From a virus: 17,975 nt of DNA. The translations under genes and the position numbers were made by a program. Below the pieces are notes generated by a model. That model saw only the letters and a program-made list of their open reading frames with translations. It was not told where the DNA came from and did not search any database. The stretch is taken from the IMG/VR virus record IMGVR_UViG_3300028897_000772, one strand, 5' to 3'. This document shows, one piece after another, positions 2,841 through 4,612 of this stretch (positions within the stretch are counted from its first letter, which is position 1; every line of letters starts with the position of its first letter).

Positions 2841-3368
2841 ATGTTAAGAGATCTAGAAGCAAAAATTCCTGGTGCTCCAGATTTTGAATATTGGGAATTT
2901 GTAAAGTCTGATACAGCAATAAGATTAGGAATTGTTAATGAACCCAATGAAGCACAATGGCAGAACATAGAAAGGCTTGCAGTTAATATTCTTCAGCCTG
3001 TCAGAGATCATTTTGGAAGAACAAATTTAACTTCTGGTTTCCGTTGTCCTGAATTGTGTATTGCAATTGGCAGTTACAAGATTGTAGATGGAAAGAAAGT
3101 TGTAACATCTAATCATCAGAGAGGGGAAGCTGGAGATTTAGAACCAGATAACAAACAGATACCTTTGATAGATGTTTTGAACTTTATCTATAATGAATGT
3201 GATTTTAGAGAATTGATTGCAGAGTATTTTCCTGGTGGATGGGTTCATGCAGCATATAGGAAAGATGGTAATGATAGAATTTTAAAACTGAAAGATCCTA
3301 ATCATAATTATGAGAAGGTTACAATTGAGTATATAAATTCTATTTATAGGTATGAGAGACCAAATTGA
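2841..3368 (+). CDS. Zinc peptidase of the M15 family (D-Ala-D-Ala carboxypeptidase-like fold), probably the endolysin or a cell-wall hydrolase
   Basis: GGAGG lies 6 nt upstream of the ATG. Motifs present are FEYWEF, SGFRCPEL, and H-x6-D (HQRGEAGD) plus a distal His (WVHAAY), which together are the zinc-ligand pattern of M15/peptidase_M15_3 phage peptidoglycan peptidases. Confidence 0.7.
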   Translation: MLRDLEAKIPGAPDFEYWEFVKSDTAIRLGIVNEPNEAQWQNIERLAVNILQPVRDHFGRTNLTSGFRCPELCIAIGSYKIVDGKKVVTSNHQRGEAGDLEPDNKQIPLIDVLNFIYNECDFRELIAEYFPGGWVHAAYRKDGNDRILKLKDPNHNYEKVTIEYINSIYRYERPN

Positions 3369-3481
3369 AGAGAAGTGAAAAAAGAAACAGTTTCAAAGAA
3401 TGTTTTACGGAAAAGCTCAAGCCTTTTAGAATACCTAAAACATTTGTTTCGAATAAGTTAAAAGGTAAGGAGGAAAATGTC

Positions 3482-3760
3482 ATGGCACAAAAGCAATGGT
3501 GGGTTCGTGCATACCAGAAATTGTTTGAGAACCTTATCTCTATAAAGGTATGGGTTCTTGCTGGTAATGCTCTAGTTTCAGCATGGTTAGTATGGAGGTT
3601 TTCTACACCAGAAACTATAGGAAGTATGTTTAGTGATTGGTGTGCATTCAATGGTGGTGTTGTAACTGCCATTATAGGAATGAGAGAAGCTTTTAAAGTT
3701 GCTATTATCAAAACAAACGGTAATGGCAATGGAGAGGAACAACCAAAGAAATTTGTATAA
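3482..3760 (+). CDS. Holin-like small membrane protein with two predicted TM helices
   Basis: ATG at 3482 is preceded by AAGGAGG with an 8-nt spacer. The track ORF from 3365 begins with TTG and has no RBS. The 92-aa product has hydrophobic segments ISIKVWVLAGNALVSAWLVWRF and GGVVTAIIGMREAFKVAII, and sits directly after the peptidase. Confidence 0.55.
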   Translation: MAQKQWWVRAYQKLFENLISIKVWVLAGNALVSAWLVWRFSTPETIGSMFSDWCAFNGGVVTAIIGMREAFKVAIIKTNGNGNGEEQPKKFV

Positions 3761-3773
3761 GGAGTGTGATATT

Positions 3774-4103
3774 ATGGCAGCAACAAATATTTTATTAGCA
3801 ATAGGTGCAGGTGGTGTAATTGCTGTAATTGGATTCTTTATTACTTCTGGTAAAGGAAGTGATATCCTAAAGGGTCTCACAAATCTTTTTCAGAAGAAAC
3901 AGCAAGAGAAAATAGATGCAATTGAAGAGCACCAGAAAACAATTGAGGTTAATATAAAGGAAAAGGAAAAACTGGCAGTGGAGTCAAGAAAGAAAATAGT
4001 CGAGATCCAGAAGAGGGCTACTAAGGAGATTGAGGATATAGTGAAGGAAGATAACTTAGCAAGACTAGATCAGGAGATAAATGAAGAATGGGAAGATTTG
4101 TAA
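3774..4103 (+). CDS. Type II membrane protein with a single N-terminal TM and a long charged coiled coil (Rz / i-spanin-like architecture)
   Basis: ATG at 3774 is preceded by AAGGAG. The track start at 3699 lacks an RBS. The TM is ILLAIGAGGVIAVIGFFI, followed by a heptad-rich K/E segment. The 3' end overlaps the next gene by 16 nt. Confidence 0.55.
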   Translation: MAATNILLAIGAGGVIAVIGFFITSGKGSDILKGLTNLFQKKQQEKIDAIEEHQKTIEVNIKEKEKLAVESRKKIVEIQKRATKEIEDIVKEDNLARLDQEINEEWEDL

Positions 4104-4612
4104 GAAAAATAGGTGTGTTTTTCTTAATAGCTTTGTTCTTCTTAGCTAGTTGTGCTCCTGCACAATTTACTCCAGTAGCACCTTTCAATCCAGAGTTTGA
4201 TAAGACTCCACCTTATACTTTGGATCTTGATTCAATTCCTAAGCCAGAAAAAATTGAGCCTGTCTATGTTGATGAGAATTTCAAAGAAGTGTCTGTTGAT
4301 CAGGCAAAGTATGTTCTTTTAGTTCCCAAAGAATATGCAAAGATAGCTGCATTATTGAAATTAGCTAAGGCATATAAAGAAGTAGCAAAGGAACAGGAAG
4401 TTCTTGTTAATATTCATGTTGATACAATTAATGCACTTAAAGAGTATATTAAATTGGAGCAATATAAAACAAAAGCATACCTTGAAATGTATGCTAACTC
4501 TGAAAATGCCTATAGACAAGAAGCATATCATCATAGACTAGATAATGCAATTAACAAAGGAACATTTGCAACTATAGCAATAGGAGTTATAATAGCACTT
4601 ATAGCACTATGA
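4088..4612 (+). CDS. Lipoprotein with a C-terminal TM anchor (unimolecular spanin-like topology)
   Basis: The signal peptide ends in the lipobox FLAS-C. A hydrophobic segment TFATIAIGVIIALIAL lies at the extreme C-terminus. The ORF is embedded in the lysis-like cluster. The SD is weak, so translational coupling is likely. Confidence 0.55.
   Translation: MGRFVRKIGVFFLIALFFLASCAPAQFTPVAPFNPEFDKTPPYTLDLDSIPKPEKIEPVYVDENFKEVSVDQAKYVLLVPKEYAKIAALLKLAKAYKEVAKEQEVLVNIHVDTINALKEYIKLEQYKTKAYLEMYANSENAYRQEAYHHRLDNAINKGTFATIAIGVIIALIAL

Follow-up and report, generated by a model that had tools for sequence, protein, structure and literature searches.

A probable lysis cassette in an uncultured tailed phage, ending in a long-helix lipoprotein with the topology of a unimolecular spanin

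Spanins perform the final step of Gram-negative phage lysis, and a candidate for this role was studied here in the virus record IMGVR_UViG_3300028897_000772. The analysed window, by which we mean the whole stretch of 17,975 nt, was A+T-rich (about 34% G+C), carried nearly all of its genes on the plus strand and looked like part of a tailed-phage genome, with a DnaB-like helicase, a dUTPase, a thymidylate kinase and a CCA-adding-like enzyme making up its tailed-phage-like gene content. At positions 2841-4612 we found four consecutive plus-strand genes, every one with a strong Shine-Dalgarno (SD) sequence upstream, in the order reported in a preliminary description made from the sequence: an M15 peptidase, a small protein with two transmembrane (TM) segments, a protein with an N-terminal TM segment followed by a helical, coiled-coil-like part (hereafter TM-CC) and a lipoprotein of 174 aa. 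That description of the genes was correct, and only two start codons (3482 and 3774) had to be amended. [quoted passage not shown]

The lipoprotein gene (4088..4612, plus strand, as are all its parts given below) encodes a product of 174 aa, of which 153 aa would make up the mature form. The signal peptide (residues 1-21, 4088..4150) consists of the n-region MGRFVRK, an h-region and the lipobox L-A-S preceding Cys22 (codon 4151-4153), with an alanine at position +2. Cys22 is the only cysteine of the protein, and there is none in the periplasmic part. At the opposite end, residues 157-174 (GTFATIAIGVIIALIAL, 4556..4612) form a predicted TM helix that runs to the stop codon and leaves no cytoplasmic tail. 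The last 17 residues showed a mean Kyte-Doolittle value of 2.5-2.9 and were helical in the AlphaFold2 (AF2) model, and the conserved G166 of this segment lies within a GxxxA-type motif. When a PROSITE-like lipobox rule was applied to the window's 43 six-frame open reading frames (ORFs) of 60 aa or more, two fitted it, and only 4088-4612 also ended in a TM segment. Since the combination of lipobox and TM was unique among these 43 ORFs and was kept across homologues, it is not attributed to chance. Both termini, the lipobox LAS-C and the hydrophobic C-terminal helix, had been proposed beforehand and were borne out by the window sequence and by the family described below.

An AF2 model built with an alignment of 47 sequences of the lipoprotein family reached a mean predicted local distance difference test score (pLDDT) of 90 and consisted of the signal-peptide helix, an extended Pro-rich stretch (residues 22-58), a tiny hairpin and a single unbroken helix of 94 residues (80-173). 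The mature N-terminal part (residues 22-79, 4151..4324; pLDDT 77-95) comprises the extended Pro-rich linker and the small beta hairpin (59-61/75-77), contains 9 prolines in 58 residues (15.5%) and carries the motifs CAPxxF and KPxK, conserved in the alignment. Next comes a predicted periplasmic stalk (residues 80-156, 4325..4555), a 77-residue amphipathic helix modelled with a pLDDT of ~90-97. Its a/d positions had a hydrophobic occupancy of 0.62-0.75 in a heptad scan, and its composition is rich in A, K, E, Y and L. Conserved motifs of the stalk are KEYAK, EQxxLxN and SENAYRQE, and K85, Q103, N108, N115, E119 and Y131 were invariant in the alignment. In the model, helix accounts for ~57% of the periplasmic domain. 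The protein had been characterized as rich in K/E/Y rather than Pro, which holds for helix 80-156 but not for the Pro-rich residues 22-79. Regarding dimensions, the linker of ~37 residues could extend up to ~115 Å and the 77-residue helix measures ~115 Å, so the modelled linker and helix together would be long enough to cross the Gram-negative periplasm. A profile search of PDB sequences with the lipoprotein gave only insignificant EnvC coiled-coil matches (E 0.4), and no Foldseek match of the lipoprotein model in the PDB had an E value lower than 3.7.

Among 5.8 billion proteins, the single sequence retrieved 99 homologues and a profile retrieved 327, all of them 160-190 aa long, metagenomic and without a functional name, and an exhaustive HMMER scan of 1.84 billion representatives at 50% identity found 171 clusters. 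All 47 aligned sequences had the lipidated cysteine, as did 147 of 148 full-length homologues. Among these 147 members, the +2 residue was alanine in 126 and aspartate in none, and 129 had no other cysteine between the lipobox and the TM segment. A hydrophobic C-terminal helix ended essentially every family member, the most distant included. The lipoprotein found no tblastn match in 50,697 phage records or in plasmids, and megablast of the whole window against the same phage records was likewise empty. Eleven of the 47 aligned members weakly matched phrog_812, named 'Rz-like spanin' (4.7e-5 at best); these matches begin in the signal peptide and we do not regard them as diagnostic. From these searches we consider the lipoprotein to represent a new sequence family that is fairly widespread in environmental phages.

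Cultured phages contain more distant counterparts. The best Foldseek matches of the lipoprotein among viral models were a 'lipoprotein' of the Pseudomonas jumbo phage PaBG (TM-score 0.60-0.65) and one of Erwinia phage Y3, and hhalign against PaBG_00275 gave a probability of 96.4% (E 1e-9) over 149 columns, including a common SENA-R-E motif. PaBG_00275, Y3_075 (Erwinia phage vB_EamM_Y3) and fHeYen902_301c (Yersinia phage fHe-Yen9-02) form phrog_23384, also named 'lipoprotein', which was matched by the window protein at 1.7e-4 and by 15 of the 47 family members at values down to 4.7e-6. The likeness covers the lipobox, the helix, the TM segment at the very C-terminus and the grouping in a trio with a two-TM and an N-TM/helical protein. 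Identity, however, is only ~23-28%, the proteins are 154-156 aa long compared to 174 in the window, and BLAST from the window protein finds none of them. We therefore regard phrog_23384 as a distant homologue of the window lipoprotein, not as a close member of its family. Y3 and fHe-Yen9-02 show the gene order of the window (two-TM, N-TM/helical, lipoprotein), the lipoprotein gene having a 4-nt overlap. The PaBG run comprises 00273 (N-terminal TM plus charged helical part, 98 aa), 00274 (2-3 TM segments, 126 aa), 00275 (156 aa) and 00276 (M15A peptidase), so that the TM-CC analogue stands before the two-TM gene and the order of the partners is swapped relative to the window. Alignment of TM-CC with its PaBG and Y3 analogues by hhalign revealed no homology; a local hidden Markov model (HMM) ranked these analogues first, but in a database of six sequences only. 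The partner proteins of the three phages are thus best viewed as architectural analogues without significant sequence similarity. Taken together, PaBG, Y3 and fHe-Yen9-02 place the module in phages of three Gram-negative genera (Pseudomonas, Erwinia and Yersinia), and the u-spanin topology assigned to the window protein in the preliminary description is exactly the one conserved throughout its family and in these relatives from phages of Gram-negative hosts. No spanin label was found for the three lipoproteins in their records, in the PaBG paper or in the literature searched.

The first gene of the cassette (2841..3368, plus strand) encodes a protein of 175 aa that we identify from its sequence as a soluble M15 (LAS-type) zinc peptidase and endolysin. 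It matched Peptidase_M15_3 (PF08291) with 26.9 bits, above the gathering score of 23.2 (5.5e-6), and phrog_894 'endolysin' at 2.9e-24. The zinc triad H92-x6-D99...H136 can be read in its sequence, no signal peptide or TM segment was detected in it, and orthologues occur in two related environmental loci, L001 (87%) and L003 (56%), the zinc motif being kept in L003. The second gene (3482..3760, plus strand) encodes a holin candidate of 92 aa. The mechanical ORF begins at 3365, and the true start is almost certainly the ATG at 3482, given the SD sequence TAAGGAGG standing 8 nt before it. The protein has a basic N-terminus, two hydrophobic segments (~17-38 and 53-67), a conserved REAFKV motif and a charged, basic C-terminal tail. 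Its small size, two TM domains (TMDs), charged C-terminal tail and position beside an endolysin gene fit the architecture of a class II holin; comparison with Pfam, PHROGs and NCBIfam gave no family match, and homology to a known holin family was not found.

The functional assignment of the module draws mainly on its neighbourhood in 14 environmental loci, namely the window and 13 others (L001-L009 and L019-L022), in which the three small proteins were sought with local HMMs. Of the 14 loci, 12 had a holin-like homologue upstream of the lipoprotein gene and 13 had a TM-CC homologue upstream on the same strand; in 10 of these 13, the TM-CC gene overlapped or abutted that of the lipoprotein. The 16-nt overlap seen in the window was identical in L001, L003 and L019, and overlapping or abutting pairs also occurred in L002, L004, L006, L020, L021 and L022. 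While these membrane proteins were constant, the endolysin was not. The M15 enzyme is the direct neighbour in the window and in L001; its distance is 2 kb in L003, and it lies ~0.5 kb downstream in L021 but ~5.7 kb upstream in L020. An Amidase_3 (PF01520, 9.8e-22) immediately precedes the module in L002 and L019, and in L009 a T4-type Phage_lysozyme gene, 3 kb upstream of the lipoprotein gene, has the holin-like gene right behind it. Within 6 kb, a member of these three endolysin classes was found in 8 of the 14 environmental loci and in PaBG. That three unrelated endolysin types swap beside a constant membrane-protein module is a hallmark of lysis cassettes and the strongest functional argument for one here, and the earlier suggestion of such a cassette is supported both by the adjacent M15 endolysin and holin-like genes and by this exchange.

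Some loci depart from the compact arrangement. Other genes separate the TM-CC and lipoprotein genes in L005, L007 and L008; in L005 (6077-7822) the inserted gene encodes a 581-aa multi-TM protein, and TM-CC remains beside the holin-like gene. In L009 (5366-7974), genes for 224-aa and 640-aa proteins stand between the holin-like and lipoprotein genes, and the same two genes stand downstream of the lipoprotein gene in L003 and L004. The preliminary description had also attached to the cassette a coiled-coil membrane protein encoded at 5052. This protein (5052-5450, ORF from 5034) has 132 aa, a basic N-terminus, an N-in TM segment, a coiled coil and a single cysteine, a layout like that of an inner-membrane spanin subunit (i-spanin). 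It is conserved in L001 only (72% identity), where it follows the lipoprotein gene directly; in the window an extra gene (4609-5025), missing from L001, separates the two. None of the other 12 environmental loci contained it, nor did PaBG, Y3 or fHe-Yen9-02, and because it is kept only in the nearest relative we rejected it as part of the conserved module. A further observation concerns a TROVE/Ro60-like protein with a vWA domain (~540-550 aa), whose gene precedes the module by a few kb in L001 (1542-3200), L002 (2160-3806) and L019 (1224-2843); Ro-like RNA-binding proteins are uncommon in phages.

The third gene of the cassette encodes TM-CC (109 aa; 3774..4103, plus strand), with the SD sequence AAGGAG 9 nt upstream of its start and a mechanical ORF beginning at 3699. 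Its end and the start of the lipoprotein gene share 16 nt (4088..4103, plus strand), an 'overlapped' architecture. The protein comprises a Gly-rich N-terminal TM segment (residues 3-24), a helix (28-50), a linker and a second helix (61-94), the helix boundaries being taken from an AF2 model of low confidence (pLDDT 54). The region after the TM segment is highly charged and helical, and the window protein contains no cysteine. Sixteen homologues were found. The soluble domain was constant in length (87-93 aa), and the acidic, Trp-containing C-terminus (EEWEDL) was conserved and was kept even without an overlap of the two genes, as in L005. The match of the window TM-CC to phrog_739 'Rz-like spanin' was weak (0.0037), and one JGI record labels a homologue 'gas vesicle protein', a name suggesting that the PHROG matches of TM-CC are compositional. 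Small-xxx-small (Gly/Ala) motifs were conserved in the TM helices of both TM-CC and the lipoprotein. When the two stalks were set antiparallel and aligned at the membrane, their charges showed weak complementarity (mean r -0.28, compared to +0.14 to +0.21 in the reversed control), which is only suggestive because the sequences compared are related.

If the cassette acts in lysis, the following sequence of events can be proposed. The 92-aa two-TM protein would build up in the inner membrane and act as the holin, freeing the soluble M15 peptidase, which would then cut the peptidoglycan cross-links. The 174-aa protein, as a spanin of unimolecular topology, would leave by the Sec route, receive a lipid at Cys22 and be cut by signal peptidase II, its Pro-rich linker and 77-residue helix threading through the murein and spanning the periplasm. 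Once the murein is gone, the tethers would cluster and collapse, drawing the membranes together and destroying the outer membrane, as has been proposed for T1 gp11 and for Rz/Rz1. TM-CC would most likely work with the lipoprotein in the inner membrane, either as an i-spanin-like subunit lying antiparallel to the stalk or as a regulator.

Several points weigh against this interpretation. We infer the localisation, topology, protein contacts and lytic function of the cassette proteins from their predicted topology and from gene neighbourhood, and the lipoprotein shares no homology with T1 gp11, the one experimentally proven u-spanin. Its C-terminal TM segment lacks a cytoplasmic tail, with its basic residues on the periplasmic side, so that stop-transfer anchoring is not assured. 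No endolysin was found in L004-L008, L022, Y3 or fHe-Yen9-02, about half of the loci, within the ~2.5-10 kb examined on each side; an endolysin gene that is not seen near such genes is common for large phages. No TM-CC gene was detectable near the lipoprotein gene of L009. The AF2 model of TM-CC is poor, and the topology of this protein is ambiguous. In the subfamily to which the window TM-CC belongs, the N-terminal flank of the TM segment bears no basic residue and the C-terminal flank bears several, and by the positive-inside rule these charges favour an N-out/C-in orientation with a cytoplasmic helical domain. The TM-CC analogue PaBG_00273, in turn, weakly matches the holin family phrog_526 (2.6e-4). 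Finally, the only relatives binned into genomes came from metagenome-assembled genomes (MAGs) labelled as archaeal (Thermoplasmatales, Promethearchaeota and Thorarchaeota).

This last point bears on the host. The relatives in question are three and independent of each other, namely L004 (DAOVGR010000059.1), L005 (DAOUVJ010000001.1) and protein P0136 (MGD2072722.1), and a scan of genome contigs yielded two MAG contigs only, both labelled archaeal and both with tailed-phage genes. Given the tailed-phage structural genes and the peptidoglycan hydrolases of the group, we assume that they are probably mis-binned phage contigs; the recurrence of archaeal MAGs among three independent relatives is notable nonetheless. 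Peptidoglycan hydrolases and SD-led genes indicate a bacterial host, which for the window phage most likely had an outer membrane.

The position and conservation of TM-CC raise the question of whether the lipoprotein acts by itself. That TM-CC is a partner of the spanin is a possibility we place somewhat below even odds. A stronger version, which we advance only tentatively, is that the two proteins form an obligate hetero-oligomeric spanin, a hybrid between the two-component type and the unimolecular one, in which TM-CC would be the i-spanin, the lipoprotein would be a partner resembling an outer-membrane spanin subunit (o-spanin) that either retains or has gained an inner-membrane anchor of its own, and neither would suffice alone. 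The stalks might then wind round each other as an antiparallel coiled coil, with packing between the Gly/Ala-rich TM helices of both proteins, details that are equally doubtful. Pointing this way are the overlapped gene architecture, which resembles that of two-component spanins, the retention of the pair in 13 of 14 loci with architectural analogues in PaBG, Y3 and fHe-Yen9-02, and the TMD-helix-linker-helix layout of TM-CC, which is Rz-like, albeit in a model of pLDDT 54. The small-xxx-small motifs of both TM helices, the matching stalk lengths and the weak charge complementarity are consistent with such a pair, as are the weak Rz-like PHROG matches, that of TM-CC to phrog_739 being joined by one of Y3_076 to phrog_1026 (0.0018). 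An obligate pair is, however, hard to reconcile with the L009 lipoprotein, near which TM-CC was not detected, with the genes inserted between the two partners in L005, L007 and L008, or with the PaBG order, in which the two-TM gene stands between them. It also sits badly with the uncertain topology of TM-CC and with the lack of a periplasmic cysteine in either window protein, such a residue being near-universal in two-component spanins.

Holin/antiholin pairs are common in lysis cassettes, and TM-CC might instead join the two-TM protein in timing lysis, as a holin or antiholin, the lipoprotein being a self-sufficient u-spanin as in T1. For this we see perhaps one chance in a few. The weak phrog_526 match of PaBG_00273, the cytoplasmic helical domain expected for the window subfamily from the positive-inside rule, the place of TM-CC beside the holin-like gene in the split module of L005 and the L009 lipoprotein without TM-CC would all fit such a role. 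In most loci, however, the start/stop overlap of the TM-CC gene is with the lipoprotein gene and not with the holin-like gene, and the PHROG matches are all weak, some of them towards spanins, and possibly compositional, as the 'gas vesicle protein' name suggests.

Phage lipoproteins are often exclusion factors, and it could be argued that the trio is an envelope-tethering or superinfection-exclusion system whose lipoprotein bridges the membranes and blocks phage DNA or remodels the envelope, endolysin genes being near by chance; one family member weakly matches the Cor PHROG (0.0023), about half of the loci had no endolysin in the stretch examined and the window also carries SPFH/MVP-like membrane-scaffold genes, but we consider this improbable in view of the three endolysin classes beside the module in independent lineages, the conserved holin-like partner, a topology exactly that of a proven outer-membrane disruptor and the fact that, to our knowledge, the known exclusion lipoproteins Cor and Llp lack a C-terminal TM segment.

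Outside the cassette, the window showed other membrane-related features. Just upstream, positions 89-2089 encode a 666-aa protein that combines a Major Vault Protein (MVP) shoulder domain (PF11978, 3e-29) with a vault repeat and an SPFH/Band-7 region, which is unusual for a phage. A second lipobox protein (MFIATGC, 295 aa) is encoded at 16516-17403, has an SPFH-like sequence without a family match and is preceded by a two-TM protein of 154 aa (16036-16500), and the two genes may constitute a second membrane-associated module; an HflK-like protein (PaBG_00287) is also found in PaBG. In addition, six otherwise different window proteins (2315, 4609, 7240, 7669, 8547 and 8978) shared the N-terminal motif M-[KR]-F-x-x-[YF]-L-x-E, as in MRFFRYLTE, MKFQKYLTE and MRFKKYLIE. 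The carriers include three paralogues (7240, 7669 and 8547) and the CCA-adding-like enzyme (MKFTTFLINE), and the motif recurred in relatives, in L001 at 3454, 8749, 9189, 9662 and 11188 and in L002 at 4127 and 4453. It might serve in targeting or packaging, or reflect a translation-initiation constraint. The window contained no tRNA genes, and a promoter scan of it gave a result not above chance.

As to what the cassette may add, T1 gp11 is the sole u-spanin studied experimentally, u-spanin mechanism and origin are open, and it has been proposed that u-spanins arose when an o-spanin gained a C-terminal TMD (PMC6139136). Were the lipoprotein and TM-CC indeed an obligate pair, they would be the first concrete intermediate on this route from o-spanin to u-spanin (PMC6139136) and would also provide an all-helical u-spanin resembling class I fusogens, with genetics feasible in the Pseudomonas, Erwinia and Yersinia jumbo phages that carry the trio. 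A long single helical stalk with a near-invariant bitopic partner would make the relation between two-component and unimolecular spanins testable in tractable hosts. Since the family reaches PaBG, Y3 and fHe-Yen9-02, where the protein is annotated just as 'lipoprotein', a spanin candidate can be named in these phages, and annotation pipelines could mark the family and phrog_23384 as candidate spanins. The advance is incremental and involves no new principle.

Compared to T1 gp11, the window lipoprotein differs in most respects other than topology. Homology between the two was considered and rejected, as hhalign gave a probability of 5% and aligned only the signal peptide, and gp11 belongs to phrog_1804, to which the window protein had no match. 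Gp11 is beta-rich and ends in a charged cytoplasmic tail (RKHEKKEA), whereas the window protein is predicted to have a single 77-residue helical stalk and its family has no such tail. The T1 cassette consists of a pinholin, a SAR endolysin and the u-spanin only, while the genes of the window family are almost always accompanied by one for an N-TM/helical protein. The cassette had been considered possibly non-canonical, and this is fair by virtue of that near-constant upstream gene, which T1 lacks and which the preliminary description did not stress, but not by virtue of the 5052 protein.

Two-component spanins of the P2 LysB/LysC type and lambda Rz/Rz1 offer a second comparison. As in these systems, an upstream gene encodes a predicted bitopic inner-membrane protein with a helical ectodomain, and the downstream lipoprotein gene lies in another frame and starts before the end of the first; a Pro-rich region after the lipidated cysteine is likewise shared with o-spanins. 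On the other hand, o-spanins are short, unstructured and without a TMD, whereas the window lipoprotein has 153 aa in its mature form, is mostly helical and carries its own TMD. The absence of a periplasmic cysteine from both window proteins is a further difference, this residue being nearly universal in two-component spanins (PMC6139136), and the similarity of the window proteins to PHROGs of two-component spanins was weak and non-diagnostic (0.0037 to 0.0099).

The closest fit is with the u-spanin class, which is defined by a signal for an outer-membrane lipoprotein, plus a TMD at the C-terminus, in a lysis cassette and comprises 58 proteins in 13 unrelated families with T1 gp11 as prototype, none of them with a periplasmic cysteine (PMC6139136). 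The window lipoprotein agrees with this class in its signal, a +2 residue other than Asp, the C-terminal TMD, the cassette context, the lack of a periplasmic cysteine and its length. The preliminary description had called it unusually long, which is true relative to o-spanins only, as u-spanins range from 112 to 192 aa (PMC6139136, Table S3). Its helical character extends a tendency already present in the class, whose members reach up to ~43% predicted helix, with families RAP44, phi10:1/phi19:1, PB1 and 9A at ~40% and coiled coils predicted for RAP44, phi10:1, phi19:1, phi12:1, phi47:1 and 9A (PMC6139136). By sequence, the lipoprotein would thus found a 14th family of u-spanin type, set apart from the other 12 solely by the empty tblastn against the 50,697 phage records, and distinguished within the class by its long, single helical stalk.

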